From contig URVV01000004.1 in assembly GCA_900551455.1 (NCBI GenBank), positions 18,165-82,164 on the forward strand: 64,000 bases of DNA, given 5' to 3'. The DNA comes from an uncultured Mycoplasmatota bacterium. GTDB lineage: Bacteria; Bacillota_I; Bacilli_A; RF39; UBA660. Position numbers and translations under genes: made by a program. The notes under the pieces were generated by a model, which saw nothing but the letters and a program-made list of their open reading frames with translations, was not told where the DNA came from and made no database searches. Positions 821-16,432 of the stretch are shown piece after piece (position 1 is the stretch's first letter; each line of letters opens with the position of its first letter).

Positions 821-927
821 ATCACCTCAAAGTTTTACTTCTACTTATTAAGTATAACATAAAAATCGATAAATTTCGAGAATTTGAGATAATAAAAAGG
901 AAGAATTTTAATTTCTTCCATAATAAT

Positions 928-1185
928 TCATTCAATATCTCTAAATAAGTCAGGTACTTCGATATTTAACCAATGACATATAATACATACTTCTTTAAGT
1001 GTTATTCTTTTAGCTTTACCACTTAATATATTCATAAGTCTTTGAGGTGATATATCAGGATTCACTTTTGCTATTAGATATTCAACTGCTTTTATATCAG
1101 GACAAGTCTTTTTAAATTCTTCGTCATTATCCATTTTATCAAGATATTTTAAGATTTCAACTGATATTTTTTGATATATATTCAT
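928..1185 (-). CDS. small XRE/Cro-like HTH protein
   Basis: 85 aa. C-terminal ...KRITLKEVCIICHWLNIEVPDLF resembles the HTH_3 recognition helix region. Confidence 0.4.
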   Translation of the reverse strand: MNIYQKISVEILKYLDKMDNDEEFKKTCPDIKAVEYLIAKVNPDISPQRLMNILSGKAKRITLKEVCIICHWLNIEVPDLFRDIE

Positions 1186-1193
1186 ATTAATAT

Positions 1194-1346
1194 TTAATTC
1201 CTTTCATTATTTACTTTTAATTCTTCAATTATTTCTTTAATTTCACTTGTCTTTTCTAATATTTGTTTTAAATTATCAACACTACTAAATTCTATATCAT
1301 TAATCTTATTTGTTATATCAGCTAATGATTTAGATATATCTTTCAT
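1194..1346 (-). CDS. hypothetical 50-aa protein
   Basis: Below the track cutoff. ATG at 1346 is preceded by GGAGGTG. Translation is MKDISKSLADITNKINDIEFSSVDNLKQILEKTSEIKEIIEELKVNNERN. Confidence 0.3.
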   Translation of the reverse strand: MKDISKSLADITNKINDIEFSSVDNLKQILEKTSEIKEIIEELKVNNERN

Positions 1347-1543
1347 ATTCCTACACCTCCTAAGTTTATATCCATTATATCGTGTATTTTTTATTTGTCA
1401 GTGCTTTTTATTTAAATTATTAAAACTTAATTATAGCTTGTTTATTCACAAAATATGGAGTTTTAACTAATTCTAATATATTTATACTATTTTATTATTT
1501 CTATGAGAATATGATACTCCAAACAAGACCACAGGACTTATTA

Positions 1544-2200
1544 TCAAGATTCATCATCATCAAAGTCCCACAATGATATATCTTGAGTAATATATCTAAG
1601 ATTATTAATAAGACTAATCTTAAGATAATTAAATTTATCATCTATTGAATTACCATACTCATCTTTATTATTATTTAATTTTAAATGTTTAAGTATATAA
1701 TTGGTACACATATAAATTAACTGATAATCATATTCTTGATTCAACTCCTTATACATTTCTTCATATTTATTTATTTCAAAGTCATCTTTACTAATATAAC
1801 GACGTCTAATTAATTCTTTTGTATAACCGCTTATAAGTGTTTCATCTATTTCATCTTTATTATTTATTTTATTTATTATATCTTTATTTTCCATATCCCG
1901 TATATTGGGATATGGTAATTCATATATAGCATAATCATACTTAACAAATCTTCCTTTATCATCTCTTATAGACTTTCTAATTAAATAGTTTTTGGATTCT
2001 AACTCTTTTAATAACCTATGGATAGTATTTTTACTTTCTTTAACAAGAGAAGCAAGTCCTACTGTAGAATAAGACCAATCATTAGGAAGTGATAACATAG
2101 TTATTAATAGTGCTTTAGCTGCTAGACTTAAATCTTTATCTTTTAATAATTCATTAGATATTCTTGTATAATTAATTTTATTTTCTTCTCTAAAGACCAT
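1544..2200 (-). CDS. winged-helix DNA-binding protein, replication-initiator/DnaD-N-like, typical of mobile elements
   Basis: 218 aa. N-terminal YTRISNELLKDKDLSLAAKALLITMLSLPNDWSYSTVGLASLVKESKNTIHRLLKELESKNYLIR pattern. SD GGAGGGTG lies upstream. Confidence 0.5.
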   Translation of the reverse strand: MVFREENKINYTRISNELLKDKDLSLAAKALLITMLSLPNDWSYSTVGLASLVKESKNTIHRLLKELESKNYLIRKSIRDDKGRFVKYDYAIYELPYPNIRDMENKDIINKINNKDEIDETLISGYTKELIRRRYISKDDFEINKYEEMYKELNQEYDYQLIYMCTNYILKHLKLNNNKDEYGNSIDDKFNYLKISLINNLRYITQDISLWDFDDDES

Positions 2201-2492
2201 ACTATCACACCCTCCGTGATGGTATATTTTAACGTATTTTTATAAATATCTGGATAGGACATTAAGATTTTTTTCTCTCTTATTCAAAGGTAGCATTATT
2301 TTTGTGATAATGTGATAGACTGTATTTCTTTAATATAAATAAAAAAATACCACTTCAAATATGAGTAGTATAGTGTTATAATTCATTATAGTTATAAAAA
2401 CAAATATCTAGGTCGACATAGTAAGTAACTTCATGTGTTTTATGGTGAGCATACCTACATAATCTAGTAAAGATAAACGCTTCCTTTTTGTA

Positions 2493-3340
2493 CACATTAT
2501 ATGTATTGAAGGTGCTTTAGCTTTAAGTTTAACTCCATACCTACCACCTTGTTTAATAATTTCCGGAGTTTCTAATTTCATATCTGCAAGAGTTGGTGAA
2601 GCAATTCCGTATCCCGTCTGTTTAACCGTTTTAAGAGCTGACTTAATTTGGTCATACTCAGTTTTAGTCTCATTAAATTCCTGAAATAAACTAAGTAAGT
2701 CTGCTTTAGAACTAATATCCACGTTAATAATTTCATTAAGTACCTGCCCATATAACTCTTTTGGAGCCGACAAATTAATTGTTACTTCCCCCGTTGAAGT
2801 GTCTACATCCGACAAATAAGCTTTATCTATATATTCACAATCATTAAAGTATTCTGTAATTGAATCAACCTCTCTAATTTTATCAATAGATAATACACTC
2901 TCTTTAATCTTCTCAATATAACACTTCTTTACATAATGTTGAGGATTTAATATAGATATCCAATCAGGAATATTTACTTTAACCTCAACAACCGGGAACT
3001 CATATAACGCCTCTTTCAATATATTATACATATCTCTTTCTTGCATTAATTCAACATTAATAGGTAATACTGGAACCCCATACTTATTTTTAAGTTCTAA
3101 AGTTAAGTTATTTGCCTCTTGACTTCCAGGATTAGCTGTATTTAAAAGAATAATAAAAGGTTTTCCTATTTCCTTTAACTCGTTGACCACCGTCTCTTCA
3201 GCTTCAACATAATTATTTCTTTTAAATTCCCCAAAAGATCCATCCGAAGTAACAACAATTCCAATAGTAGAATGTTCCTTAATAACCTTCTCAGTTCCAA
3301 TCTCGGCAGCCTCTACAAAAGGAATTGGTTCACTATACCA
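2493..3340 (-). pseudogene. spoIVA: spoIVA internal segment (stage IV sporulation protein A), bounded by foreign DNA on both sides
   Basis: Continuous frame YSEPIPFVEAAEIGTEKVIKEHSTIGIVVTSDG...ELKEIGKPFIILLN...LYEFPVVEVKVNIPDWI...TEYDQIKSALKTVKQTGYGIASPTLADMKLETPEIIKQGGRYGVKLKAKAPSIHIM. It is colinear with B. subtilis SpoIVA (...TPWYEEPIPFHEAAEIG...APSIHMIKVDV...). After IHIM the frame runs into unrelated CTKRKRLSLLD...* (stop at 2408). Confidence 0.85.
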
Positions 3341-3408
3341 GTATGACCTGTTTTTGTGATACCTAATTTTATTTTTAAAAATTGCTTGGAAGCAACTCGT
3401 ATTTTTAC

Positions 3409-4995
3409 CTATATTAATACTTCACTTTTTTTAATTCTATAATGAATTTCTAGTTTTTTATCTTTCGTTACATATATTTTATCTATTAATCTATTCATGA
3501 TTTCTCTTGTTGGATTTTTCATATCTAGAAAACTTTTAATAATATCTAAATATTCTACATAACAAGAAGAATCATCATTAATACTAGATATTTCATTTTG
3601 TAATTGTTCTAGTTTATCTTTTGCAGTTTTAATATCTTCTTCAGTAGCATTAAATAATCTTTGATAAGTTTCTACACTTATAACATTATTAAATTTATCA
3701 TCATATAAAGAGTCTTGTTTTCTTTTTAAATCATTTATTGTATGATTTAATTCTTCTATCTTTTTTAGTTTATCTGCTTTTGGATCAACATATTGGCTTT
3801 TAATAATATTTTCAAATTCTTCTTTATCATTAATATATTGATTAGCCATAGTACTTAACTTGTCATAGACTGTGTTTTCTAGTTTTGTATAGTTAATATA
3901 GTGAGAAAAGCATATATCATACTTACTAAACTTACGATAGTTATTACAATTCATTGTGACTCTATCTCTTTTCTTATCATAACTAATACTCATTCTAGCA
4001 CCACAATCTTTACAAAATACTAAATCAGATAAAACATAATCAACATTTCTTCGTTCAGGATTATAATTATTTGATGAATCTTTAATAGATTGTGCGATTT
4101 CAAATGTTTTCCTATCTACAAGTGGTTCGTGTGCATTTTCTTTAATACACCATTCACTTTCAGGAACACTTTTTCTTTTCTTAATCTTATAATTCACTTT
4201 TTGAAATCTGTGTTGAATTAAATCTCCAATATAAACTCTATTTTTGATGATATTACTGACAGATGTGTGTTTCCATATTTCAGGATGGTCAAATCTATTT
4301 AATTTTGAATCAGAGTATTTATACATAACTGGTGTAGGTAATTCTTCTCTTGTTAGTATTTCAGCAATTTGTGAGCTACCATAACCTGCAACATATAAAT
4401 CAAAAATTCTTTTTACTACAGGAGCAGTTTCTGGATCAGGTACTAGTTTGTGTTTGTCTAAAGGATCTCTCATATAACCATAAGGTGCAGAACTTCCACA
4501 AAACTTTCCATCTTTTTTCATTTGAAGTAAGTTTGAACGAACTTTTTTAGAAATATCTTTTGCATACATATCATTCATACTTAATCTAAATGGCATCATA
4601 TCAGAGCCACTTGTTTCAAAAAAAGTATCTATATCATCGTTTACGGCAACATATCTAACATCGTTTTCTGGGAAAAATGTTTCAACATAATAACCAGTCA
4701 TTATATGGTCACGACCTAATCTTGATAAATCTTTAGTAATAACCATGTTTATTTTTCCATTTTCAATGTCATTTAACATTCTCTTAAACTCTGGGCGTTC
4801 AAAATTTGTTCCTGTATAACCATCATCTACATAAATATCAACTGCAACTAATCCTTGTGCTTTTAAATAACCAATTAATAAACTTCTTTGATTAGTGACA
4901 CTTTCTGATTCCATATCATCACCATCTTCACGAGATAGTCTTATATAAATGGCTATTTTAAAAATCGTATTGTCTATTGCATATCTACTATACAT
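3409..4995 (-). CDS. large serine recombinase (element A integrase/excisionase)
   Basis: 528 aa. IAIYIRLSREDGD catalytic-Ser motif with ...ITKDLSRLGRD, a recombinase domain, the Cys pairs CKDCGARMS...MNCNNY, and a coiled-coil tail. SD AAAGGAGA. Confidence 0.9.
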   Translation of the reverse strand: MYSRYAIDNTIFKIAIYIRLSREDGDDMESESVTNQRSLLIGYLKAQGLVAVDIYVDDGYTGTNFERPEFKRMLNDIENGKINMVITKDLSRLGRDHIMTGYYVETFFPENDVRYVAVNDDIDTFFETSGSDMMPFRLSMNDMYAKDISKKVRSNLLQMKKDGKFCGSSAPYGYMRDPLDKHKLVPDPETAPVVKRIFDLYVAGYGSSQIAEILTREELPTPVMYKYSDSKLNRFDHPEIWKHTSVSNIIKNRVYIGDLIQHRFQKVNYKIKKRKSVPESEWCIKENAHEPLVDRKTFEIAQSIKDSSNNYNPERRNVDYVLSDLVFCKDCGARMSISYDKKRDRVTMNCNNYRKFSKYDICFSHYINYTKLENTVYDKLSTMANQYINDKEEFENIIKSQYVDPKADKLKKIEELNHTINDLKRKQDSLYDDKFNNVISVETYQRLFNATEEDIKTAKDKLEQLQNEISSINDDSSCYVEYLDIIKSFLDMKNPTREIMNRLIDKIYVTKDKKLEIHYRIKKSEVLI

Positions 4996-4998
4996 TTT

Positions 4999-5181
4999 TT
5001 ATCTCCTTTCAGTAGACAACACATTCACTTTATTAGTTGAATTAATTATACTATTTTTTGCGTTCGATTTAAATACTTTTGATGAATTTTTATAAGCCAT
5101 ATAATATTTATATATACAACTTTTTAAGACTTCTTTTAAATCACAACCATTACTATCATAAAATTCTAGTGTTTCATACAT
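4999..5181 (-). CDS. hypothetical 60-aa protein translationally coupled to the LSR gene
   Basis: GGAGG SD. The stop lies 3 nt before the LSR ATG. No recognisable motif. Confidence 0.4.
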   Translation of the reverse strand: MYETLEFYDSNGCDLKEVLKSCIYKYYMAYKNSSKVFKSNAKNSIINSTNKVNVLSTERR

Positions 5182-5256
5182 GATTATTCCTCCACAATGA
5201 ATTTTATGTGTAATAGTTTATAAAAATTACTATTCTTCATAAATTATCACACCTTT

Positions 5257-5676
5257 CTATTGATATTCTTTTAGCATATCTTCCATTTCTTTAAGTTCTT
5301 CTTCAGTGGGTGGAATTGCTTCACATCTTTTTCCATCCCAAACTTCAACACCGTCTGAATCAAGTCTTATATGAGGACCTTTTCTTCCGTTCATCATTTC
5401 ATCTTTATTGTCTGATATATCAGTCACAGTAATAAAACTTTGTATTCTTTCATTTGTAATATAAGAATTAAGATAACCTTTAACAAAAACTCTTGTTCCT
5501 TTAACAAAAAAATCTTTATATATTTCATAAAGATTTCGGTTAATATTAAAACTAGCATAAACTTTCCTTTTATCATATTTAAGAGTGGTTAAACCAAACT
5601 TAATATAATCTTTATTATTATCTGTCACATTATTAATAGTTCCAGATATTATAATTTCGTTTAAATCAATTTCCAT
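5257..5676 (-). CDS. hypothetical protein, possibly an OB-fold/SSB-like domain
   Basis: 139 aa. N-terminal LNEIIISGTINNVTD...VFVKGYL loosely resembles SSB OB-fold strands, with an acidic C-terminus. Weak call. Confidence 0.3.
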   Translation of the reverse strand: MEIDLNEIIISGTINNVTDNNKDYIKFGLTTLKYDKRKVYASFNINRNLYEIYKDFFVKGTRVFVKGYLNSYITNERIQSFITVTDISDNKDEMMNGRKGPHIRLDSDGVEVWDGKRCEAIPPTEEELKEMEDMLKEYQ

Positions 5677-5826
5677 TTTTATAACTTCCTTTCTTTTTAA
5701 TCTTTTTAAAGATTTAAATTATTAAAATAATTTTAAATTTATATTATCTATTAATATTATTTATTATATTATTTATTCTGTTAGAAGATACTTGCTATAC
5801 TCACTAGCAGTATCTTGCTATTACAT

Positions 5827-6108
5827 CTAGCAGAAATCTGCTAAATAGATTCTTCTTATATTAGGTTCATTTTCAACTCTAATATATTTTTTTGTTCTTA
5901 ATGATGTTATGCAACTAGTAATCGTTCTTTTAGATACTTTTAAAAGATTACTTAAATACTTATTACTTGCATAACAAAATCCCTCTTGCATAGATAGGGT
6001 ATTAATTAAACCCATTAATAGTTTAGTAGTAGAAGATAGTTCTTCATCTAATAAAACTATTGTAGGCACCTCTATATGCTTTAATTTAGTAATATCGCTA
6101 TTATTCAT
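5827..6108 (-). CDS. winged-helix DNA-binding protein (MGE Rep/DnaD-N-like)
   Basis: The track starts at a TTG (6141). I prefer the ATG at 6108, preceded by AAAGGAAAGGAG. Pattern: LDEELSSTTKLLMGLINTLSMQEGFCYASNKYLSNLLKVSKRTITSCITSLRTKKYI. Confidence 0.5.
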   Translation of the reverse strand: MNNSDITKLKHIEVPTIVLLDEELSSTTKLLMGLINTLSMQEGFCYASNKYLSNLLKVSKRTITSCITSLRTKKYIRVENEPNIRRIYLADFC

Positions 6109-6395
6109 ATTATCAATCTCCTTTCCTTTAAATTTAGGCAATAAAAAAACTTGTAAACACTACTTACAAGTCATACTAATAATGACAATAAAATCCCTGT
6201 GTGAGATAAATCTCACTAAATAGGTTGCTTGAAGTAAAACATACATAACATATTTCAATCCCTTTTATTCTTTTATTTCGTTCTTTGAAATATGTTTTAC
6301 TTCAAACTAGTTCATCTTATATTTCTATAAGATAGGTTCTAATATAAATCTACGAACATTTACTGAACCTTTATTTGTTAGTGATTTAATCTTTT

Positions 6396-6662
6396 CTAAC
6401 AAATCTCGTATGTGTATAATCCTCGGTCGTATTCATTGAACCTTATATATTTGTTATCTTCTAATATTTTTAGGTTCTTCTTGAATCCAACATTTGTTAT
6501 ACTCAATTTCTTTTGAACTCTCCCGATACTTATACTTGTGAATTCACATCTTTGGGATTGTTCCGCACAGAGTATTTTGTATATCAGCTTCGTTTCAAAC
6601 TTGATATTTTTATCTCTCCATACTCTTGGATCAATTAATTCTAGTTGTTTTTTTAATCTCAT
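6396..6662 (-). CDS. small winged-helix DNA-binding protein
   Basis: 88 aa. FETKLIYKILCAEQ...ISIGRVQKKLSITNVGFKKNLKILEDNKYI. GGAGG upstream. Confidence 0.4.
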   Translation of the reverse strand: MRLKKQLELIDPRVWRDKNIKFETKLIYKILCAEQSQRCEFTSISIGRVQKKLSITNVGFKKNLKILEDNKYIRFNEYDRGLYTYEIC

Positions 6663-6844
6663 ACATTTGATTTCCTCCTTTCTTTTTCTATGTTACCCAT
6701 TTAATTTAAAGGTGGGTTCATTTGGAAACATATTTAATATATCATGCTAATTACTATATTGTCAACACTTTTTTACCCATTTATTGAAATTATGTTGACT
6801 TTTTTACCCACTGGGTGTATTATTATGGTGTGAGGTGAATTTCT

Positions 6845-7348
6845 ATGCTAGAAAAAAATATCGGCGAAGTTATTGCTGAAGCTAGAGAAAAGAAAGGTTT
6901 ATCGCAAAGACAACTTGCGAAACTTGCAAAGATTAATAACTCTGAACTTTCTAAAATAGAATCAGGTATAAGAAAAGATCCTAGTCCTAAAATATTAAGA
7001 AAGATAAGTAATATAATAGATGTTAATTATAGTGACTTAATGTATATGATAGGTTTAGGATTAGAAGTGACACAACTTAATTATTTTGTTAAGAGTCATT
7101 ATGCTAGTTTAAATCTAGAACAATTAGATACTGCTGAAATAAATGTTTTAGGAAGTATAGAAAATTCTGAAAGTATAGTTTCTACATGTAAAAAAGAATT
7201 AGAAAAAGATGATTTACCAGAAGAACAAAAAGAGTTATTAATACATACTATCGAAGATCATACATATCAAATTAATTCATCAAAAGAAATAATCAAACTT
7301 ATTCAAAGTTTAAAAGTAAAGGAGAGAAATAAAAATGCTAAAAAGTAA
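6845..7348 (+). CDS. XRE-family HTH transcriptional regulator
   Basis: 167 aa. IAEAREKKGLSQRQLAKLAKINNSELSKIESG is a classic HTH_3. Confidence 0.8.
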   Translation: MLEKNIGEVIAEAREKKGLSQRQLAKLAKINNSELSKIESGIRKDPSPKILRKISNIIDVNYSDLMYMIGLGLEVTQLNYFVKSHYASLNLEQLDTAEINVLGSIENSESIVSTCKKELEKDDLPEEQKELLIHTIEDHTYQINSSKEIIKLIQSLKVKERNKNAKK

Positions 7349-7763
7349 TATAATTAAAAAATTATTAGTAGTAGTGAATTTTATTGTAGGATTATTTTTA
7401 ATACTAACTATCATATTTAATAATAAACTTACTTATTCTTTATATTGGATTTTAATTCCTATTTTAATATTTTTAATTGTAATGTTTATATATGAGGTAG
7501 ATAAAGGGTTAATTGAAATAAATCAAAACGAGGGCAAGTCAATTAGAAGATCATATAATGATATAACAGTTGTATCTACTGTATTCTATGGATTAATATA
7601 TTTAGGAATAGAGTTTATTGATATGATAAATAGTGATGTTAGAAATAATATTTATTTAGTATGTGGTTTCTTTGCAATTACACTTTTATATGAATTATTT
7701 GTATTCATGGCAATTAAGAGTGCTAAAAAAGAAACATCGGAATTACTAAATAAGAAAAAATAA
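7335..7763 (+). CDS. small multi-pass membrane protein
   Basis: 142 aa with about 4 hydrophobic helices. Overlaps the upstream XRE gene by 14 nt. Confidence 0.5.
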   Translation: MLKSNIIKKLLVVVNFIVGLFLILTIIFNNKLTYSLYWILIPILIFLIVMFIYEVDKGLIEINQNEGKSIRRSYNDITVVSTVFYGLIYLGIEFIDMINSDVRNNIYLVCGFFAITLLYELFVFMAIKSAKKETSELLNKKK

Positions 7764-7870
7764 ATTTATGAAGTAAATTTATAATCCTTACTTTTGCATA
7801 GCAAAAGAAAAAAATAACCTTTTACCCTTTCGTTAGATTAGGTATTAGGTTATTTTTATTTAAAGAATAC

Positions 7871-8085
7871 GTGGCACGTTTTGTTGCTTTAGCAATGAAA
7901 GTGGCGATAGTATTCTTTCTTTTTTATGTAGTCGCAAGACAAAATAAAAAAGAGCAACATTCACTTACGATAGTTTGTGAAATGTTGCTTATTGGGTTTC
8001 AAAAGGGTGTCCCTTTGCACACTATTCCTAGTTGGCAAAATGCCGACTTGGTAGTGTGTTACTATCTTGTCTTAAAGATAGTCTT
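7871..8085 (+). other. conserved noncoding module shared with element C (putative oriT or structured RNA)
   Basis: GTGGCACGTTTTG-TTGCtttaGCAA-TGAAAGTGGCGATAG at 7871-7910 matches the minus strand of 48206-48168, with a compensatory stem change. Downstream are GTGTGT (8054-8059) and the hairpin ACTATCTT/AAGATAGT (8061-8082). Confidence 0.5.
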
Positions 8086-8219
8086 TCACGAAAATCCATT
8101 AGTTATGTAATTTCTTTTGGATTTTCGTTTTCAATAGGTTTTGATTTTTATATTTAATTTATTCAGAATATCTTAATATTACGATTTAATCGATAAATTG
8201 TAATTTAGCGAATAGTAAC

Positions 8220-10142
8220 TTAATTTTCTTTTTTATTAAACATATGGCGTACTTTATCTATTCGATTATTTGGTCTGCGTGATTGAATAACTGGTTCACA
8301 AGTAGCAATTTGATAATCTTTTAATTCTGTCAAAAAAACTGCTTGCCCATTTGTATATAGAGTTAAAGTATTACGATATTCATTAATACAACGTGCAGGA
8401 ATATGTCCTGTAAAAATAACTTCATCATTTTTTGATTGACTTGTTTCAATTATTGCACAATGTTTTTGTGCATCATTATATGCACGAGAAAAGTATTCCT
8501 GTGGTGTAAAAAGTATAAACGAACAATATGGCTCTAATAATTGCGTTCCCGCTTTTTTCAATGTTTGTTCAAGTACAATTGGGGCAAGAAAGCGAAAATC
8601 CGAGGGAGTACTAACAGGGCTATAATAAACACCATATTCAAAACATATTTTACAATCTGTTACTTCCCAACCATACAAACCTTGCTCCAGTCCATAATTA
8701 ATACCTTCTCTTACTGCATTTTGGAAACTTTGATTTAAATAACCGAGTGAAACTTTGCTTTCGTACTGTATTCCACTGCCAATTGGAAGTGGAGTTATTG
8801 ATAATCCAATCGATGCCCAAAATGGATTTGGTGGTACTTCAATATGAATAGTATAATCTGCCTTTTGTAATGGTTTTTCCAAATAAATTACGGTTGGATC
8901 TTCGATTCTTATGTTTATGTGATATTTTTCAATCAACAGAGAACAGATAACTTCTAACTGCACTGTTCCTAAAAAAGAAATGATGATTTCATGTGTTATC
9001 GTATCAACATAATAACGTAAAAGAGGATCAGTATCTGCAATTTCTGTAAGAGCATCCAATAATTTTTCTCTCTCTTCTATTTTTATCGGTTCAATTCTTG
9101 TTCGTAGTATTGGTACAGTCTTGTCATTCCATACATTGCATGGCAAAAGCTTTTCATTTCCTATAATATCGTTCAATCTTAATGTATTGTTAGGTATAAT
9201 AAAAATATCTCCAGAACAAACTGTTTTTGTCTGTATCATTTCTCCATTTGAAGGAATATATATTTCTGTAAGTTTCACTTTCTTTTTTTCTGGCAATATA
9301 ATTGTATCTCGTAAGTGTAATGTTCCACTGTAAAGACGCAAATAAACTAATCTTTGCTTATGGTCTGTATATTCAATTTTAAAAACCCTTCCACATAGTT
9401 CTGAATCATTCTCATTCATTTCAGGACAAAAAAGATTTGAAATAGCTTCGATGAGTTGTTGAGTCCCTATATTATTTCTAGCACTTCCATGGTATATAGG
9501 AAACAACGAACCTTTTTTAACACACCTATATTCTTCATACGTTAATTCTTGTATAGTCAATTTTTCTCCTGCAATATATTTTTCTAAAAGTTTATCATTT
9601 TTGGAAATTACAGGATCCCAATCATCTAAATCAATAATATTTTTAATTGATATTTCTGGAGTTAATGTTACATTTTGCATAACAATAATATCATTTGAAA
9701 GTTTTTCTTTGATATTTTGATAAATATTATTTAAGTTAATTCCATCCTGATCTATTTTATTTATAAAAATAATTGTTGGTATATTCATTTTTTGAAGTGC
9801 ATGGAATAGTATTCTGGTTTGTGCTTGTACACCATCTTTAGCAGAAATTACTAAAATAGCTCCATCAAGAACAGATAAGGAACGATACACTTCTGTTATA
9901 AAATCTGCATGTCCAGGAGTATCTACAATATTGATTTTGTAGTCATTCCAATTAAAAGAAGTAACTGCTGCCTGAATTGTGATTCCACGCTGACGTTCTA
10001 AAAACATAGTATCTGTCCTTGTTGTTCCCTTATCTACACTGCCTAATTCTAAAATCGCTCCACTTGTATAAAGCAGACTTTCCGTTAAAGTTGTCTTTCC
10101 TGCATCTACATGAGCAAGAATACCAATGTTGATTATTTTCAT
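8220..10142 (-). CDS. tetracycline-resistance ribosomal protection protein, Tet(M)/Tet(O)/Tet(44) family (640 aa; a Tet(44)-like allele is suspected from memory only)
   Basis: [30 protein letters not shown]...[17 protein letters not shown]...DTPGHADF...INKIDQ is the EF-G-like GTPase with the characteristic RPP N-terminus. SD GGGAGGGA. Confidence 0.93.
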
Positions 10143-10191
10143 TGAATTTCCCTCCCTACAAATTTATCTTTTAACTTAAAATCAATATTTG

Positions 10192-10719
10192 CTAATTTTG
10201 TTCTTTTAAACTATTCTCAAAATCAATTATCCACTTTTCTAATGTTTCTACTAATGCTAATTGTTGTTTGAACATTTGTTTTCCAACATTAGGAATATGT
10301 TGTCTATGAGATTGTCTTTCATTTAGTAATTCTTTTAATTCTAATATCTTTGATTTTATATTAGAAACAAGAATCTTTTTTTGTTCATCATCTACTAAAT
10401 CTAAATTCGTAATAATAATATTAAAATCCAAATATAGACTAACATCATAATTTGAAATATCATTCATAAGTCTATTAAAATAATCATTACCTTTGTCAGT
10501 AATAGTATATACTGCTTTATCTGGCATATTTCCCTCTTTCTCTTTATGGCAAACAATATATTCTTTTGATTCTAATTGTAATACTTTCTTATAAATAGAC
10601 TGTTCACTAATTCTTACCCATCTTGGTATATTACGATATTCTATATTTTTTTTAATATCATAAGCACTTTGTGATTTTTGTTTAATAAGTCCTAATAATA
10701 CCAAATCTATATTTGACAT
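10192..10719 (-). CDS. PadR-family transcriptional regulator
   Basis: 175 aa. LVLLGLIKQKSQSAYDIKKNIEYRNIPRWVRISEQSIYKKVLQLESKEYI. Lies 49 nt upstream of tet. Confidence 0.75.
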   Translation of the reverse strand: MSNIDLVLLGLIKQKSQSAYDIKKNIEYRNIPRWVRISEQSIYKKVLQLESKEYIVCHKEKEGNMPDKAVYTITDKGNDYFNRLMNDISNYDVSLYLDFNIIITNLDLVDDEQKKILVSNIKSKILELKELLNERQSHRQHIPNVGKQMFKQQLALVETLEKWIIDFENSLKEQN

Positions 10720-10731
10720 AATCTCTACTCC

Positions 10732-11082
10732 TTACTTAATATAATCTGTAACGCCAAGTCTATTTCCAAATGGATCTTCAAACTCGACTGCATTACCCGT
10801 TCCAATTTTAAAAGGCTCACTCAAAAATTTTATACCATTATTCAACATTTCTTTATAGAAGATTGCAACATCTTCTACTTCAAACCATATTGTAGGCTTT
10901 AAATTCTCAAATTTATTTTTGTCTTTTAAAATTATTGCAGGTTCTTCATTTCCAATATTATAAGCAACCATTCCCTTATCAGAGAAATCAAATTTCTTTT
11001 TTAACCCCAATATTTCCTCATAATATCTTTTTGCTTCTTCCATATTATCTACTGGAAGAAAATAGTTGTCATAATTTTTCAT
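10732..11082 (-). CDS. VOC/glyoxalase-bleomycin-resistance family protein
   Basis: FLPVDNMEEAKRYYEEILGLKKKFD...FEDPFGNRLGV. The track start is a GTG at 11091; the ATG at 11082 is also possible. Confidence 0.7.
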   Translation of the reverse strand: MKNYDNYFLPVDNMEEAKRYYEEILGLKKKFDFSDKGMVAYNIGNEEPAIILKDKNKFENLKPTIWFEVEDVAIFYKEMLNNGIKFLSEPFKIGTGNAVEFEDPFGNRLGVTDYIK

Positions 11083-11232
11083 ATACTCCACATCTCCTTT
11101 TTTGCTATAAGCTACACTACTATATTTTATAGTAGTTACCGTTAAAAGTCAATATATAACAAAAAAGACTGTCATTACTGACAATCTTTTCGGTAAATTA
11201 CTATAAATCAATAACTATAAAATTGTAATTTA

Positions 11233-11913
11233 TTAATTCTTGCAATCCCCTTCTGTATATTCCATAGAATAATCGCCAATTAATATATTTTTATCATTTT
11301 TAGTGGTATGGCATACTATCATAGTGATATCTTTATTTTTAGATTTGTAAATTTTTGTTCCTCCATCTCTCAATGTGACTGTTAACTCTAATTTATCAGT
11401 AATATTTTTTATGCCATCATCAAGTGTTTGATAAGCAGTTGAAAGATAAGTTTTCAAAGTAATATCTTTATCTTTATCTTTAATATAAAACTCTCCAATA
11501 TTACCAGCTAAATAAATTGTGCGATTTTCAACAGTACAATAATCATTAAATCTAATATCATTATGATTTTCAGGCTTTGTTATATAAAAATCAAAATCGT
11601 TAATCTCAATATTTGTTGTTCCTACTTGTGCTGGATAGCTTTCATTAATCATACCTTTATAAGTAATAGTTACCTTATCCCCAATTTTACAAGAATTAAA
11701 ACCATCAACATATTCAATTCTAAATTTATCGCTAGACTTATATTCTTCTTCATTTTCATTTGGGCGAACAATCATAGTTTTTTCTTCGCACTCTGTTATA
11801 GTTCCTGCAAAGGTATGAATATCATCTAAATTATTTTGTTTTGACTTTCTACAACCAGTCATTCCTAATACCATAACCCCACACACTAAAATAGCAAATA
11901 ATGTTTTTTTCAT
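11233..11913 (-). CDS. lipoprotein of unknown function
   Basis: Signal peptide with lipobox LGMTGC. GGAGGAG SD. Confidence 0.6.
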   Translation of the reverse strand: MKKTLFAILVCGVMVLGMTGCRKSKQNNLDDIHTFAGTITECEEKTMIVRPNENEEEYKSSDKFRIEYVDGFNSCKIGDKVTITYKGMINESYPAQVGTTNIEINDFDFYITKPENHNDIRFNDYCTVENRTIYLAGNIGEFYIKDKDKDITLKTYLSTAYQTLDDGIKNITDKLELTVTLRDGGTKIYKSKNKDITMIVCHTTKNDKNILIGDYSMEYTEGDCKN

Positions 11914-12047
11914 AATCTCTCCTCCATTTCAACAAATTACTATTTATCTGTCTGTTTAATTATATCATACTTTTTACATATTTTTTTATTAATATACTAA
12001 TCATAAGATTACTATTTTACTAACATTTTATTTTATATAATATATCA

Positions 12048-12335
12048 TTATATATCAGAATATAATTTCTCAATTAAATCATATTCTTCTCCTAATTGAG
12101 CATATAATTCAGATATTTTATTTTCATATTCTTCTTTCTTATTGTTATATTCAATAAGTTTCTTTTTTTGAAAGAAGAAAGGTTTATTATCTTCTAAGTG
12201 GTCAATTAATGTTTGATAAGACTTTATTCTATTATCTATCATTCTTATATTTATATTTGAATCTTCAATAGCATATCTAATATTTAGTTTTAATAATGAT
12301 TTAAATAACTCATTATCATCATTTTTTTTAGTCAT
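12048..12335 (-). CDS. hypothetical coiled-coil protein
   Basis: 95 aa. GGAGGTG SD. No motif. Confidence 0.4.
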   Translation of the reverse strand: MTKKNDDNELFKSLLKLNIRYAIEDSNINIRMIDNRIKSYQTLIDHLEDNKPFFFQKKKLIEYNNKKEEYENKISELYAQLGEEYDLIEKLYSDI

Positions 12336-12453
12336 AATGCACCTCCAATACTTAAATATTTATTACAATTTAATTATATCACTTTTTTAACGAATAATCT
12401 TCGGTTTTGTAGTTAAAACTAATTTTAATGGGACAATAGTATCGGTGATAGTT

Positions 12454-12903
12454 ATGTTTGATAATAATTTACGATATGCTAGAGAAGAATTAGAAATGAC
12501 ACAATCTGAACTGGGTTATATATTTGGTGTATCTGATTCAGCAGTTAGATCATGGGAAACTGCTCACGATTCAATACCTTTACCTAAACTAATTAAATTT
12601 TGTGATATGTATGATTTCTCATTAGATTTTATATGTGGTTTAATTAGAAAGAATATTACTTATGGTCATTTTAAAACTGACAAAGTTAAAATTAGTAAAA
12701 AATTAAAAGAGTTAAGAAAAAGTTTAAATCTATCTCAACAAAAATTATCTGATGATTGCAAAATATCTCAAACAACATATAGTGGTTATGAAACAGGTCA
12801 TTATCTAATTAATACAACTAATCTTTATTATATTTGTAAAACTTATAATGTTTCTATGGATTGGATTGTTGGAAGAACTAATAATCAAAAAATAGGCAAA
12901 TAA
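12454..12903 (+). CDS. transcriptional regulator with two tandem XRE-type HTH domains
   Basis: LRYAREELEMTQSELGYIFGVSDSAVRSWE and LKELRKSLNLSQQKLSDDCKISQTTYSGYE. ATG at 12454 follows GGTGA (the track uses GTG at 12445). Confidence 0.7.
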   Translation: MFDNNLRYAREELEMTQSELGYIFGVSDSAVRSWETAHDSIPLPKLIKFCDMYDFSLDFICGLIRKNITYGHFKTDKVKISKKLKELRKSLNLSQQKLSDDCKISQTTYSGYETGHYLINTTNLYYICKTYNVSMDWIVGRTNNQKIGK

Positions 12904-12907
12904 AAAA

Positions 12908-12948
12908 AGCGAGAGTATGCTAAAAAAAATAACATATTCTCGCTTTTA
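12908..12948. terminator. bidirectional stem-loop between convergent genes
   Basis: GCGAGAgTATG...CATAtTCTCGC flanked by an A-run and a T-run. Confidence 0.45.
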
Positions 12949-13341
12949 TAATACATTTAGTGAATAACAATAATCATATACATTTAATTGTTCATTGATT
13001 TTGGTATTTATTTCTTCATTATTAAAGTCATATTGAAAGATATTAAACAGCATTTCTAATGAAAACTTTCGCTTTTCTAATAATGATAGCTCCATATACT
13101 TTGCTGAAATAAATAATAGGTTCTTATATTTAGCAAAGTTAGTTATTACATTTTTAGATTCAGGATCTAGTATTAATAATACATTTTTTAGAAGTTTAAT
13201 GAAGTTATTAATATCATAAATAGGTGTAAACCCTATATCTTCAAGTAGGTGTATTGCTAATCTAACCTTATCAATTCCTTTTAAATCATCAAACATATTA
13301 ACTAAATCAATAACTTTCTCGGTATTATCATCTAATAACAT
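12946..13341 (-). CDS. hypothetical protein downstream of the relaxase gene
   Basis: 131 aa. AAAGGAGA SD. No motif. Confidence 0.4.
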   Translation of the reverse strand: MLLDDNTEKVIDLVNMFDDLKGIDKVRLAIHLLEDIGFTPIYDINNFIKLLKNVLLILDPESKNVITNFAKYKNLLFISAKYMELSLLEKRKFSLEMLFNIFQYDFNNEEINTKINEQLNVYDYCYSLNVL

Positions 13342-13513
13342 AAATATTCTCCTTTCAAATACGCCATTTAAGGCACTTTATTTAAAGAACAGATAAGAGA
13401 TTAAACCTTAACTTAAAACTCAACTATAAGCATTTAAATAGGGTATAATTTCAAATTTCTGTTTTTCTATTTATCACTCTAACAATCAAAAAAATCAAGA
13501 GTATTTTTTAAAT

Positions 13514-14806
13514 TTATCTACTTAAATCAAAATCATCTTTATCGTATTCTTCTTCATCATAATCTCTAACTCTTTCTTTATAATAATCTGGTGCTTCAAC
13601 ATAATCAAATAATTCATCTTGTTTAGTTGTTCCTTTAGATATTCTTACAACATCTCCCATATCAAACTCACTATTATCATAACAATCTTTAACAACATCA
13701 GCAGTTTCATCTTTAGTATAATCATTACCTCGTTGTAATAATTTTCTTAAAAATTTCTTTAATAGTTGAAATAGTTCACTTAATCTATAAATTAAACTTC
13801 TATTTTCTTGTTCTAGGTTTTGATTTTCATATTCTAGTTTACTTATTTCTTTCCTATATTTTTGATTTTCTTTTTCTAGTGATTTATAACTATTAGCATA
13901 ACTATCAACTTTATTAAATATTGTTTGTAGTTTAGGTTGCAATTCCATTACTTTTTTAGATTCATTAATAACATTATTCATACTATCAAAAGTTTCTTTT
14001 TCTAAAATAACATGTTTATTATCAAAAGGAATCTTTTTATTTGTTTTCATTTGTTCTTCAAACTCACTCATCGCTTTATCTAATCTATCACTTTTAGCAT
14101 TTAATTCGTGATTTAATTTTTTAGTAAGTTGTTTATATTCTTTTATTTTAATGTGTTTATTATCACTACCTTTAATACCTCGTTCTAGATCATAACCTTT
14201 TTCAGTTAGACTTTTATGATACATATCTTGTAATTGTGATAGGTGTATTTTATCTCTAATATATTGTTTTTTAGATATGGTATATCTTTCAGTATTAGTT
14301 CTCTTATCCAATTTCTTAACAAGTGGAACAACAACACAATGAACATGAGGTGTTAATTCATCTAAATGGACAGTTGCATGTAAAATTTGTTCTTTTTTAT
14401 AACCTAAATCTTTATAAACAAATTCCATACAAGTATCTGCCCATTCTTTTATTTGCTCTCTAGACATACCATCAAAGAAAGTATGAGTAGCAGTAAAAAT
14501 TAATTCATCAGCAACACAATTTTTGGAACTATTTAACATTTCATGGTATCTTTTCTTTCTATCAGCTCGTTCAGTTTTCATTCTTTCTTCGTGTTCTTTT
14601 TTATATTCTTTTGTTAGTTTATCAAAACCTTTAGTATATTTCATATCTAGTGGAACAAGTTCTATATTATTTTTACTTAATTCTATTTTAATATCTTTAT
14701 TTGATTGATAAGCTTTCTTTTCTCGCTTATTATGTGATCCTATTTGGGCTAAATCAGGTATAGTCATAATAGGTTCACTTCTAAATATTGCATAATTTAA
14801 TTCCAT
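13514..14806 (-). CDS. MobV-family (Mob/Pre, plasmid recombination enzyme) relaxase
   Basis: N-terminal GSHNKRE (HxxR) and HLDELTPHVHCVVVPL (HxDExxPHxH), followed by a long coiled-coil C-terminus. Confidence 0.88.
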   Translation of the reverse strand: MELNYAIFRSEPIMTIPDLAQIGSHNKREKKAYQSNKDIKIELSKNNIELVPLDMKYTKGFDKLTKEYKKEHEERMKTERADRKKRYHEMLNSSKNCVADELIFTATHTFFDGMSREQIKEWADTCMEFVYKDLGYKKEQILHATVHLDELTPHVHCVVVPLVKKLDKRTNTERYTISKKQYIRDKIHLSQLQDMYHKSLTEKGYDLERGIKGSDNKHIKIKEYKQLTKKLNHELNAKSDRLDKAMSEFEEQMKTNKKIPFDNKHVILEKETFDSMNNVINESKKVMELQPKLQTIFNKVDSYANSYKSLEKENQKYRKEISKLEYENQNLEQENRSLIYRLSELFQLLKKFLRKLLQRGNDYTKDETADVVKDCYDNSEFDMGDVVRISKGTTKQDELFDYVEAPDYYKERVRDYDEEEYDKDDFDLSR

Positions 14807-14871
14807 ATATCATTTCTCCTTTCTTTTTAAACAACAAAAAAGATATGTCGTTAAACATACCTTTAATTACA

Positions 14872-15855
14872 TTAATCATCATATCTCTTGTTATAATGAC
14901 AATAATTTCTTATCTTACATTTCTCGCAGTTAGGGTGTTCTCCACAAATGTTAGCAGATCTTAATAAACAAAATTGTTGGATTATTGATTCTACGATTAT
15001 CTCATCACAGTTATTTAATTCAGCAATCTTTTTTATAATATTTAATACTTGTTGTTCAGTAGCATTAGCATTTTCAACAATTCCTAGTCTATGACTACCA
15101 AATAATCTTTCTAATTGAGAACTCTTTTTGCAAGTATTAACTCCAACTCTTTTTAAATAATCATAAGCAAAAGCTCGTCCAACTTGTATTAATTTATATT
15201 TACCACTGTTAAACATATTTGCTATGTCATTAGGTTTTTCTTTACTTACAAACTTATCTAAACTTCCATAATCTTTTTCTATTTGTTCTAATACCATTAT
15301 ATTTTTAGATAATGCTTTCATTTGATAACTAATCATTGGGTTAGTGCAATGAATCTTCCTTAACTTATTAACTAAAACACTTGGTTCAACAACTTTTAAA
15401 TAATTCTTATTATAATTATGAAATATTTCATCAATAGCATCCATATTTTCCCTAATATTATTATCTCCCCATCTATGATTAGAAAGTAGAGCAATTATTA
15501 ATGCCTTTAAATGTTCTTCAAAAGAATATTTTTTACCTTTCTTTCTTGATTTAACATTATTAACTAAATCTTTAATATCTCTCATATAATCGTAATTGAT
15601 TTTTTCCATACTTTCTTTTATAAGAGGGTATATATCTTTTAAATCATTATCATCTAATAAAGTAATATTTTTAACCATTTCATAGTTAGGATTATATATT
15701 TCTTCCTTATCAATACAATTCTTTAATACATCTATAACTTCTGCATTAGATAAATACTTTACTTTCTCAATAGGAAATACAACTTTATTTACCTTAACAT
15801 ATTTTATCAGCAAAGGAATTAATTCACTATTTTTAAAAATTTCCTTATTTTCCAT
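14872..15855 (-). CDS. endonuclease III-like HhH-GPD superfamily protein with a C-terminal Fe-S cluster loop
   Basis: The C-terminus CGEHPNCEKCKIRNYC (C-x5-C-x2-C-x5-C) is close to the EndoIII/MutY cluster loop. LIQVGRAFAYDYLKRVGV is hairpin-helix-like. There is an extra N-terminal domain of about 110 aa. ATG at 15855 preferred over the track GTG at 15870. Confidence 0.55.
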   Translation of the reverse strand: MENKEIFKNSELIPLLIKYVKVNKVVFPIEKVKYLSNAEVIDVLKNCIDKEEIYNPNYEMVKNITLLDDNDLKDIYPLIKESMEKINYDYMRDIKDLVNNVKSRKKGKKYSFEEHLKALIIALLSNHRWGDNNIRENMDAIDEIFHNYNKNYLKVVEPSVLVNKLRKIHCTNPMISYQMKALSKNIMVLEQIEKDYGSLDKFVSKEKPNDIANMFNSGKYKLIQVGRAFAYDYLKRVGVNTCKKSSQLERLFGSHRLGIVENANATEQQVLNIIKKIAELNNCDEIIVESIIQQFCLLRSANICGEHPNCEKCKIRNYCHYNKRYDD

Positions 15856-15977
15856 AAAAAAATATCTCACTTTCTAAATTTTAGCCTTTAACTAATAAAG
15901 TGAAATATTGCCTTTTATCCTTATTTTATAAGGTATTTCTTTATTTTTATATTTGGGTATCACTTATTCAACAACAA

Positions 15978-16340
15978 CCAAGGAGTCATTACATATCTAG
16001 GACCATTCTCATCATCCACTCCCTTAGCATCATTAATAACATACCCAACACAATCAATCATTTTAATATTTGCTGAGAATTCATCTACCATAATTTTAGC
16101 CGCATTTGCTGGCACAAATTTTGGTTCTGTTGTCATAATCATTTTTCCACTAGCAGCTTGTGGTAACTCATCTAAAGTTCTTTTCTTTTCAAATTCATCC
16201 TGAATATTCGGAATAACCATATTTTCCATAAATCTACGTATAAATGTAGATTTACCAGTTCTAACTGCTCCAACAACTCCTAAATAAATATCTCCCCCCG
16301 TACGTTTAGCAATATTTTTAATAACCTCTATTTTTTCCAT
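15978..16340 (-). pseudogene. spoIVA: spoIVA N-terminal segment (Walker A ATPase part), cut off by element A
   Basis: MEKIEVIKNIAKRTGGDIYLGVVGAVRTGKSTFIRRFMENMVIPNI...MTTEPKFVPANA...DCVGYVINDAKGVDDENGPRYVMTPW, then foreign LLLNK*. B. subtilis has MEKVDIFKDIAERTGGDIYLGVVGAVRTGKSTFIKKFME... SD AGAGGGAG lies before the ATG at 16340. Confidence 0.9.
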
Positions 16341-16432
16341 AAATCTCCCTCTTTTCATTAAATATTATGTCAATATTATAAAGATATTCAAAAAAGAGAA
16401 AAAAAGATGAACAAAATTCATCTTTAAAATAC

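Follow-up and report, generated by a model that had tools for sequence, protein, structure and literature searches.

The window analysed here is a 64,000-nucleotide stretch of an uncultured Mycoplasmatota bacterium (contig URVV01000004.1, positions 18,165 to 82,164), and its subject is spoIVA, a sporulation gene that lies on the minus strand and is interrupted by two mobile elements, here called elements A and B. The gene consists of exactly three colinear pieces, which hold codons 1-121, 121-401 and 402-489. The first (15978..16340, minus strand) includes the Walker A motif and runs to TPW; its open reading frame (ORF) starts at 16340, or alternatively at 16358, and as called it has 126 residues and extends to 15960, reading five codons of element A (LLLNK* after W121). 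The second (2499..3340, minus strand) picks up the frame at 3340 with WYSEPIPFVEAAEIG and is colinear as far as KAKAPSIH; the called ORF of 260 residues (3190-2408) then reads through 28-29 codons of element B (I-M-CTKRKRLSLL...MST*), with the stop at 2408. The third is a stand-alone 89-residue ORF that carries PF20439 and lies beyond window position 1. An intact SpoIVA of the same species (P0005, 489 residues), found by homology search and present on many long contigs, serves as the reference. In a tblastn search with P0005, residues 1-121 match 16340-15978 at 100% identity and residues 121-402 match 3340-2495 at 99.3%, with the mismatches confined to the junction, while residues 403-489 have no significant match within the window. 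The concatenated 402 window residues are 100% identical to P0005 in the homology search, and they score 553 bits on the NCBIfam model TIGR02836 (stage IV sporulation protein A; cut-off 459.9 bits), covering model positions 1-403 of 492.

Products of the interrupted gene recur in the protein collection. The exact 126-residue N-terminal product is present on 7 contigs, and its cluster comprises 36 variants, some of them on up to 85 contigs; the exact 260-residue middle product is found on 5 contigs, and the exact 89-residue C-terminal fragment is called separately on 9. The 86,468-bp source contig is among them each time, and it is the longest of those with the C-terminal fragment. This contig (L106; k127_38928 of ENA assembly ERZ913692, from run ERR209832 of the human gut metagenome project PRJEB1220) is 100% identical to window positions 1-14995, and the window is therefore a stretch of it. 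Given that the window derives from a short-read metagenome assembly, and that element A is a repeat common to several species that can break or mis-join assembly graphs, one might suspect a chimera in which the three pieces come from mis-joined contigs. However, the junctions that link the element A recombinase gene, the middle fragment and element B were assembled independently from ERR209831 and ERR209832 (Logan and ENA), and thus the split gene is not an assembly artefact. Moreover, the junctions are base-precise at conserved cores, excision at these gives back the exact allele, and a second doubly interrupted spoIVA (L104) comes from a different cohort and a different host, with SpoIVA proteins 72-80% identical; there, element A sits at codon 121 and a different, 7-kb Macro-type B element sits at codon 401, with both B ends present. 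We thus reject a chimera, which we consider exceedingly improbable, and we are practically certain of the description of spoIVA as three pieces separated by two elements.

The consequences of removing both inserts can be followed in silico. We stitched the window to L106 and to L134, which contains the rest of element B and the C-terminal fragment, and cut out the inserts at their shared cores, which are TGG for element A and ATACATAT for element B. The result is a 1470-nt ORF that is 1 nt off the intact alleles and encodes a product identical to P0005, with the three-domain composition of SpoIVA (SpoIVA_ATPase, middle and C). The 4.2 kb downstream of the stitched gene is 99.98% identical to the intact locus, and the genes that follow the C-terminal fragment in L134 (HU, LexA-like, Vut_1 and others) are exactly those that follow the intact gene (L080-L082). 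Exact excision at short common cores can thus restore an intact ORF in silico; the restored bacterial attachment sites (attB) are predicted to be ATGACTCCTTGGTATAGTGAACC for element A and TCAATACATATGATTAAAGTGG for element B, and the joined element ends (attP) would be CAGGTCATACTGGTTGTTGTTGAAT and GAACTATACATATAATGTGTACAAA, respectively.

An earlier, sequence-only reading of the window had proposed that spoIVA was split into at least three pieces by two independent insertions. The split by two independent insertions stands, with the count now fixed at three; the large serine recombinases (LSRs) of the two elements are unrelated lineages, only about 25% identical. The colinearity of the fragments with SpoIVA, the end of the N-terminal part at about 15978 followed by LLLNK*, the return of the frame at 3340 and the read-through tail CTKRKRL were all recognised correctly, as the tblastn alignment, the ORFs, the junction sequences and the translation agree with them. 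The second junction, placed by that reading at about 2493, lies instead at 2498/2499, next to an 8-bp core (2499-2506), and the C-terminal codons, which it rightly held to be outside the window, number 88 rather than approximately 95. It had also located an LSR at the end of the first insert; this gene, for LSR A (3409..4995, minus strand), is the last one of element A, is co-oriented with spoIVA and lies 68 nt before the resumed reading frame. Its suggestions to look to the left of the window for the SpoIVA C-terminus and for a recombinase at the far end of element B, and to define the attB sites from relatives, proved fruitful, as the 89-residue fragment and LSR B are both there on the same contig and intact alleles in related genomes define both sites.

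Element A (3341..15977, minus strand, as delimited by comparison with intact alleles) measures 12,640 bp, counting one copy of its core, and most of its genes have the orientation of spoIVA. Its TGG core, the Trp121 codon, is found at both ends, at 15978-15980 and at 3338-3340. The left (attL-side) arm, TTGTTGTTGAATAAGTGATACC (15956..15977, minus strand), whose outer 8 bp are an inverted repeat of the right arm, is also found behind the spoIVA N-terminal fragment in L073 and L100, and the right (attR-side) arm, GGTATCACAAAAACAGGTCATAC (3341..3363, minus strand), stands directly before the TGG-TAT of spoIVA. The attP site deduced from these arms would be an imperfect palindrome of 23 + 23 nt around the TG of the TGG core, with a single Trp121 codon, and attB for this family consists of the Pro-Trp-Tyr codons (cc-TGG-TAT) at residue 121. 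LSR A has 528 residues and the Pfam domains Resolvase, Recombinase, Zn_ribbon_recom and DUF4368, an architecture of the TndX/TnpX type. It shares 35% identity with TndX of Tn5397 across 96% of its length, its N-terminal domain is closest to TnpX (2mhc; E value 3e-27), and it aligns over its full length with SprA/YokA of SPbeta (6e-23), a likeness to that element. Its best NCBIfam match is XisF (NF041201), at 112 bits against 90 bits for LSR B and a cut-off of 375 bits, so that LSR A does not belong to the XisF family. A 60-residue ORF (4999..5181, minus strand) ends 4 nt before the start of the LSR A gene and is conserved in a family member with a 67%-identical LSR (L070); it has no match in family searches and is a candidate accessory or directionality factor.

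Several collections indicate how strictly this family keeps to its site. Among GTDB species representatives, spoIVA is broken at residue 121 in 8 loci (L050-L054, L066, L070 and L073), which correspond to around 14% of the approximately 57 loci of the clade, made up of uncultured metagenome-assembled genomes (MAGs) labelled 'Bacilli', 'Tenericutes' or 'Erysipelotrichaceae'. An LSR that is 60-100% identical to LSR A adjoins the break wherever the recombinase gene is contained in the locus (6 of the 8); L051 and L052 begin at a contig end, and the right arm of the element alone is present in them. The remaining 3′ part of the interrupted gene, 369 codons long, is always undamaged in these loci. 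The exact LSR A protein occurs in 3182 index blocks of the assembly collection. All ten of the contexts listed for it lie directly upstream of spoIVA codon 121, and the SpoIVA proteins of the hosts in these contexts are 59-100% identical to P0005. Similarly, a 23-nt probe for the right end recovered 24 contigs from the metagenome collection, all of which continue into spoIVA codon 121 with TGG-TA(T/C)/TTT..., which encodes W-Y/F-x-E/D-x-x-P-F-x-E-A-A-E-(I/V)-G-T... in around 16 distinct host alleles. Thus, in all 42 cases examined (24 contigs, 10 contexts and 8 genome loci), the element ends in codon 121. The more diverged members L066 and L070, whose LSRs are 60-67% identical to LSR A, have other attR arms (...GGCATCACTTTAGGGGTTCACGG-TGG...) and the same TGG-TAT target; the family has kept its site while its arm sequences changed. 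In all fetched loci, left ends were found solely behind spoIVA N-terminal fragments. An exact-pattern scan for the attP of element A gave no matches in the metagenome collection that holds the 24 integrated right ends. Given that all the examined ends lie at codon 121 and that no attP joint was found, element A behaves as a site-specific integrative mobilizable element and not as a multi-site transposon such as Tn4451 or Tn5397. Apparent matches to residues 93-489 in L053 and L087 were discarded as spurious extensions of the alignment into the attR region, and in three Clostridia loci in which the SpoIVA matches end at residues 400-446 (L065, L069 and L072), no LSR was detected alongside.

Only the left 2.5 kb of element B (1..2498, minus strand) is in the window; the other 13.1 kb, with LSR B and the spoIVA C-terminal fragment, lies beyond position 1 on the same contig and brings the element to 15,641 bp, counting one core. 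Comparison of attL, attR and attB shows that the 8-bp core ATACATAT (2499..2506, minus strand), which is common to attB and attP, corresponds to codons I400 and H401 plus the AT of M402, and its central CA is the likely crossover dinucleotide. The two arms of attP form imperfect inverted repeats (CCTTTATGTAC...GTACAAAAAGG). LSR B (547 residues; L134 8365-10008) is encoded by the last gene of the element, is co-oriented with spoIVA and overlaps the start of the C-terminal fragment. Its ORF crosses attR, with the last codon and the stop supplied by spoIVA (...TAT GAT TAA), and its C-terminus therefore depends on the state of integration. Depending on the host variant, the protein has 547, 549, 551 or 555 residues, and the attP form is around 40 residues longer (586 residues). 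The C-terminus thus reports whether the element is integrated, and the recombinase might sense this.

Elements of the B type are also dedicated to one site. SpoIVA proteins of 428-430 residues, cut at the element B residue and ending in related read-through tails, occur both in the window species and in others that are 88-90% identical, and stand-alone C-terminal fragments of 87-95 residues are numerous in the protein collection. Where the LSR end could be read (L093, L094, L095, L104, L107 and L133-L135, which comprise all the cargo variants described below), the LSRs are 48-97% identical to LSR B and each abuts such a fragment. In the window species, spoIVA exists in three states, namely intact (182 index blocks), with element B only, and with both elements; in the contig with B only, the left junction alone of a variant carrying Type I restriction-modification genes is visible. 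In gut metagenomes, we also found B-type elements whose right end is joined to the left one, either in circles or in tandem copies. A relative of LSR B (P0255) has 586 residues instead of 547-555 and ends as predicted for a reading frame that is translated across attP. Up to the final base of the core, the contig with this protein (L141; run ERR2597492) matches the integrated element in L107 at 98.4% identity over 2185 nt; from there it enters the element's left end, and it has no spoIVA sequence. Over all 220 nt, it matches the attP predicted for the element B of the window at 86% identity. A second variant of this kind (P0269, 579 residues) was found in five JGI samples. Thus, two unrelated site-specific elements, each with its own LSR, are precisely integrated at two conserved spoIVA sites; this gene is the dedicated target of both families, and the insertions are exact and leave the three gene pieces undamaged.

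The remaining genes of element A form a backbone that is constant at both ends and a variable middle. At the left end is the first gene of the element (14872..15870, minus strand), a conserved backbone gene whose 332-residue product (327 residues as called elsewhere) has no match in family searches, followed by the mobilization module with a MobV (Mob_Pre) relaxase (13514..14806, minus strand; NCBIfam NF041497, 113.5 bits against a cut-off of 100), and the Pfam domain Mob_Pre is found in all related A elements. The cargo includes a tetracycline ribosomal-protection gene of the TetM/W/O/S family (8220..10142, minus strand), whose product scores 1242 bits on NCBIfam NF033148 (cut-off 1100). Its protein is at most 70% identical to the tet gene products of the plasmid collection, the best matches being tet(O/32/O) and tet(W), and it may represent a Tet(44)-like or unnamed class; it falls below the NCBIfam cut-off specific to Tet(M). 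Directly upstream of tet, in the variable cargo module, a PadR-family regulator gene (10192..10719, minus strand; Pfam PadR) adjoins a glyoxalase-family gene (10732-11091; Pfam Glyoxalase). The element further contains several small helix-turn-helix (HTH) proteins, a DUF3221 protein and two divergent genes (one of them HTH_3 repressor-like), as well as ORFs of 88 residues, 93 residues (HTH_36), 139 residues and the 60 residues before the LSR. In 10 other contexts the same backbone carries other cargo. Approximately 2-7 kb upstream of an identical LSR A, the elements in L097-L105 have ArsR with a P-type ATPase, PAP2, APH with an acetyltransferase (GNAT), hydrolases, IS110 or IS21 insertions, or a van-like set composed of VanW, D-Ala-D-Ala ligase, VanY, an acyltransferase and an alanine/serine racemase. 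The backbone acts as an exchangeable platform for resistance genes.

Element B carries within the window an HTH_36 (DnaD-like) protein of 218 residues (1544..2200, minus strand; Pfam PF13730), encoded at the equivalent position in B-type elements from other species, and the 5′ part (1..822, minus strand) of the gene for a 1589-residue Type ISP/IIG restriction-modification enzyme, with the domains Mrr_cat_2-DEAD-ResIII-Helicase_C-ISP_coupler-Type_ISP_C and a PADLOC assignment to REase_MTase_IIG (2004 bits). In L134, the end of this gene is followed by genes for an HTH_3 protein, a zinc-ribbon protein, a 76-residue ORF, a 106-residue excisionase-like protein and a small serine recombinase (236 residues), then a 496-residue ORF on the other strand, a 109-residue ORF and an intron-type reverse transcriptase (426 residues), and finally ORFs of 83, 98, 242 and 59 residues, LSR B and the 89-residue SpoIVA fragment. 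The family shares a frame with HTH_36 on the left, the small resolvase, and the 59-residue ORF followed by the LSR on the right, within which the cargo varies among Type ISP restriction-modification, Type I restriction-modification (HsdM), N6/N4 methyltransferases with a D5-type primase-helicase, and a Macro-domain protein. These elements are defence-gene islands, with ATACATAT at residues 400-402 as their attB. Every B-type element (L134 2046-3230 and the equivalents in L093, L094, L104 and L107) has a small serine recombinase, of 196-239 residues, that in some is preceded by an excisionase-like HTH_17/MerR protein; this recombinase could serve in internal resolution or inversion, or act together with the LSR. 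In IMG/VR, the relatives of the element B resolvase are only 44-55% identical. The reverse transcriptase (L134 5331-6611) passes the group II intron reverse transcriptase/maturase model TIGR04416 (353 bits against 300), and no Rfam match to a group II intron RNA was found around it at the gathering threshold.

Several elements that interrupt sporulation genes have been published, namely skin, SPbeta, vfbin, vrin, gin and yin together with the elements of cotJC and spoIIID, and most of their targets are described as expressed in the mother cell (PMC4191935, PMC5595907, PMC10747680, bioRxiv 10.1101/2022.02.25.481979). The interrupted genes in this literature are sigK, spsM, spoVFB, spoVR, gerE and yabG, to which a survey adds cotJC and spoIIID, and the recombinase is usually found at the element's edge next to the 3′ fragment (Galperin et al. 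and the reports just cited). The resemblance to skin in sigK, which is served by SpoIVCA in B. subtilis and by CD1231 with the recombination directionality factor (RDF) CD1234 in C. difficile, is considerable: in both cases, a mother-cell sporulation gene contains an LSR-bounded element, the gene for the LSR is at the edge by the 3′ fragment, precise excision restores the ORF and the cargo varies at one site. In contrast to skin, whose target is a late sigma factor, the target here is a structural ATPase of the early sigma-E stage, it holds two elements with unrelated LSRs, neither of them prophage-like, and control by sporulation is our proposal. It is known that spoIVA is a sigma-E target in B. 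subtilis. It is also listed as one in C. difficile (PMC5025042), and by that listing both elements lie inside the coding sequence of a sigma-E target. For skin in C. difficile, a constitutive LSR combined with a 72-residue RDF that depends on sigma-E and SpoIIID limits excision to the mother cell (PMC5025042). The elements gin in gerE, SPbeta in spsM, vfbin in spoVFB, vrin in spoVR and yin in yabG belong to the same class of gene-intervening elements, and gin of B. cereus ATCC 10987 provides a precedent for a non-prophage mobile element in this role (PMC5595907), but none of them targets spoIVA, and the reports consulted describe no relaxase or antibiotic-resistance cargo.

Element A also resembles the clostridial transposons Tn4451/Tn4453 (TnpX, TnpZ) and Tn5397 (TndX), with which it shares an LSR with a DUF4368 C-terminus, a MobV/Mob_Pre (TnpZ-like) relaxase and resistance cargo. 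Whereas these transposons have many insertion sites, with a GA core, all 42 examined ends of element A lie in spoIVA, at a TGG core; the LSR gene of element A is at the outward-reading end and not at the start behind a promoter formed by the joint, and its circular form was not found in the scan of the metagenome collection. A further parallel comes from cyanobacteria, in which heterocyst elements (nifD/XisA, fdxN/XisF and hupL/XisC) are excised developmentally from genes that only a terminally differentiated cell requires; one of the recombinases, XisF, is an LSR, and a single gene can be interrupted by several elements. Since these belong to another phylum and another developmental programme, they are an analogy only. 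We found no report of spoIVA as the target of an intervening element in the full-text literature searched, which agrees with the suspicion raised in the sequence-only reading, although such an absence is not proof of novelty. We also know of no sporulation gene described as holding two elements.

With these systems in mind, one can outline how the interrupted gene might be put to use. The chromosome with both elements would be carried through vegetative growth into the forespore, which would keep them, while in the terminally differentiated mother cell each LSR would recombine its attL with its attR and release two circles. LSR A might act alone, as TndX and TnpX do, or together with the conserved 60-residue ORF upstream of it, and LSR B together with the conserved 59-residue ORF or with the excisionase-like 106-residue protein; both small ORFs are coupled to their LSR genes, and the C. 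difficile model of a constitutive LSR with a small RDF makes these three products RDF candidates. The 1470-bp spoIVA would then be rebuilt in time for coat and cortex assembly at the sigma-E stage. The sequence-only reading had offered excision in the mother cell or an asporogenous strain; the evidence leans toward excision-competent elements dedicated to spoIVA because of the strict site specificity across many species, the skin-like placement of the LSR genes, the exact reconstitution and the attP forms of relatives of element B. We would give regulated excision of both elements in the mother cell an even chance of being correct. A broader proposal, which we offer tentatively and hold to be somewhat short of an even prospect, is that of a double lock in a clade of uncultured gut Bacilli with small genomes, in which two unrelated LSR families use two conserved sites in spoIVA as a safe harbour, carried in the germline and excised in the mother cell, so that the sigma-E stage requires two rearrangements and the resistance (tet, van-like, aminoglycoside and metal) and anti-phage cargo passes through spores at no cost to the host.

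A number of observations weigh against developmental excision. We searched upstream of the LSR genes and the small ORFs with regular expressions for sigma-E (ATAww-N13-16-CATAyAnT and CATACAnT) and sigma-K promoters (AC-N15-17-CATAnnnTA), and found none convincing in this 27% GC DNA; the yield was CATACAAT in L070, with a wrongly spaced -35, and CATAAAAT in the window, with one mismatch, and thus a -10-like CATA(C/A)AAT motif with a poor -35 against the background of a 27% GC genome. LSR A is of the transposon type, and TndX/TnpX-type enzymes excise without developmental control. The failure to find an attP of element A counts here as well, and the presence of replication-type proteins in B-type elements means that the contigs with attP could reflect an autonomous replicating state rather than excision in a mother cell. 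The 100% identical LSR A in hosts whose SpoIVA proteins are only 59-100% identical points to recent horizontal spread, in which case intact gene fragments in these hosts say little about selection. Furthermore, two members of the clade have spoIVA pseudogenes that contain no element: the complete 1.46-Mb MAG CP091726.1 (L067; spoIVA at 10001-11469) has a frameshift at around codon 258, and L092 has a TAA nonsense codon at approximately codon 386 (about 9955). In part of the clade, selection on sporulation may therefore be relaxed, and some members may be losing it. L092 and L096 seemed to have genes split without an element, but in L092 a single TAA stands between the ORFs of 385 and 89 residues, and L096 has a run of N.

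Most of these observations, together with the outcome that no proven RDF was found and the established loss of sporulation in host-adapted gut Firmicutes, would fit plain insertional inactivation, in which spoIVA simply offers a conserved site that is dispensable during growth, and the strain is either unable to sporulate or able to only when a rare spontaneous excision has occurred. Both elements would then persist because they can be mobilized and carry selectable cargo, such as tetracycline resistance and restriction-modification. Such an explanation, however, has to account for two LSR lineages, 25% identical to each other, that are each specialised on the same mother-cell gene, and for the diverged members of both families (60-100% for A and 48-97% for B), all of which lie at the same codon per family, which implies a long association with the site. 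It also sits poorly with the A-type insertions in around 14% of the species representatives, in which the 3′ part of the gene is undamaged in a clade that keeps its sporulation genes, with LSR genes placed as in known developmentally excised elements, and with the existence of attP forms for B. On balance, we regard plain inactivation as unlikely, though far from negligible.

It is also conceivable that the two elements differ, with B being an old skin-like element that is excised during sporulation and A a recent resistance transposon that blocks sporulation unless it is excised by chance. Such a division would suit the excisionase-like gene of element B, its LSR-coupled 59-residue ORF, the LSR ORF that extends across attR, the diverse cargo and the attP forms, on the one hand, and, on the other, the resistance cargo, MobV relaxase and transposon-type LSR of element A, its 100% identical copies in different species and the absence of a detected attP. 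Nevertheless, the A-type LSRs of L066 and L070, diverged to 60-67% and located at the same codon, indicate that the link between A and spoIVA is also old; element A likewise has a conserved small ORF coupled to its LSR; and the great abundance of the exact LSR A is hard to fit with an insertion that kills sporulation in spore-transmitted bacteria. We consider such a mixed situation rather improbable.

Among coat morphogenetic proteins, SpoIVA, which acts early, is to our knowledge the only one that all endospore formers conserve. Four traits are unusual here: the target is an early structural gene, two elements with unrelated recombinases lie in one gene, one of them is an integrative mobilizable element that bears a relaxase and carries resistance genes in exchangeable cargo, and the prevalence in human-gut assemblies is very high. 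If excision in the mother cell does take place, the list of developmentally rearranged genes would gain an early structural gene, spoIVA would become the first known case of a sporulation gene that requires two rearrangements, and mobilizable resistance elements, beyond prophage relics, would be exploiting the split between mother cell and forespore. Given the 3182 assembly blocks with the exact LSR A, this would then be a common route for the persistence of resistance genes in spore-transmitted gut bacteria. If, on the other hand, the insertions abolish sporulation, they would constitute a frequent, element-driven route to its loss in gut commensals. Either way, the two attB/attP pairs represent new, highly specific LSR systems, and genes split in this manner will be mis-scored as missing sporulation genes in genome surveys.

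Two further observations concern the surroundings of the gene. In a group of JGI loci (L087-L091; for example, L087 781-3826), a complete spoIVA 3′ part, 80% identical to P0005, is followed by a 386-residue ORF without a Pfam match and then by an attR-like remnant of the B type, a second copy of the C-terminal 89 codons (90%) and the native downstream genes. This arrangement looks like a decayed B-type element or one that brings its own replacement 3′ end of spoIVA, and the B-type element of L107 also contains, on the opposite strand, an ORF of the same size (386 residues). Finally, between uvrA and spoIVA the window contains a gene for a 360-residue protein (16433-17515) with a weak, partial serpin-like match, which is absent beside spoIVA in more distant members of the clade, where der-spoVIF-GATase is found upstream.

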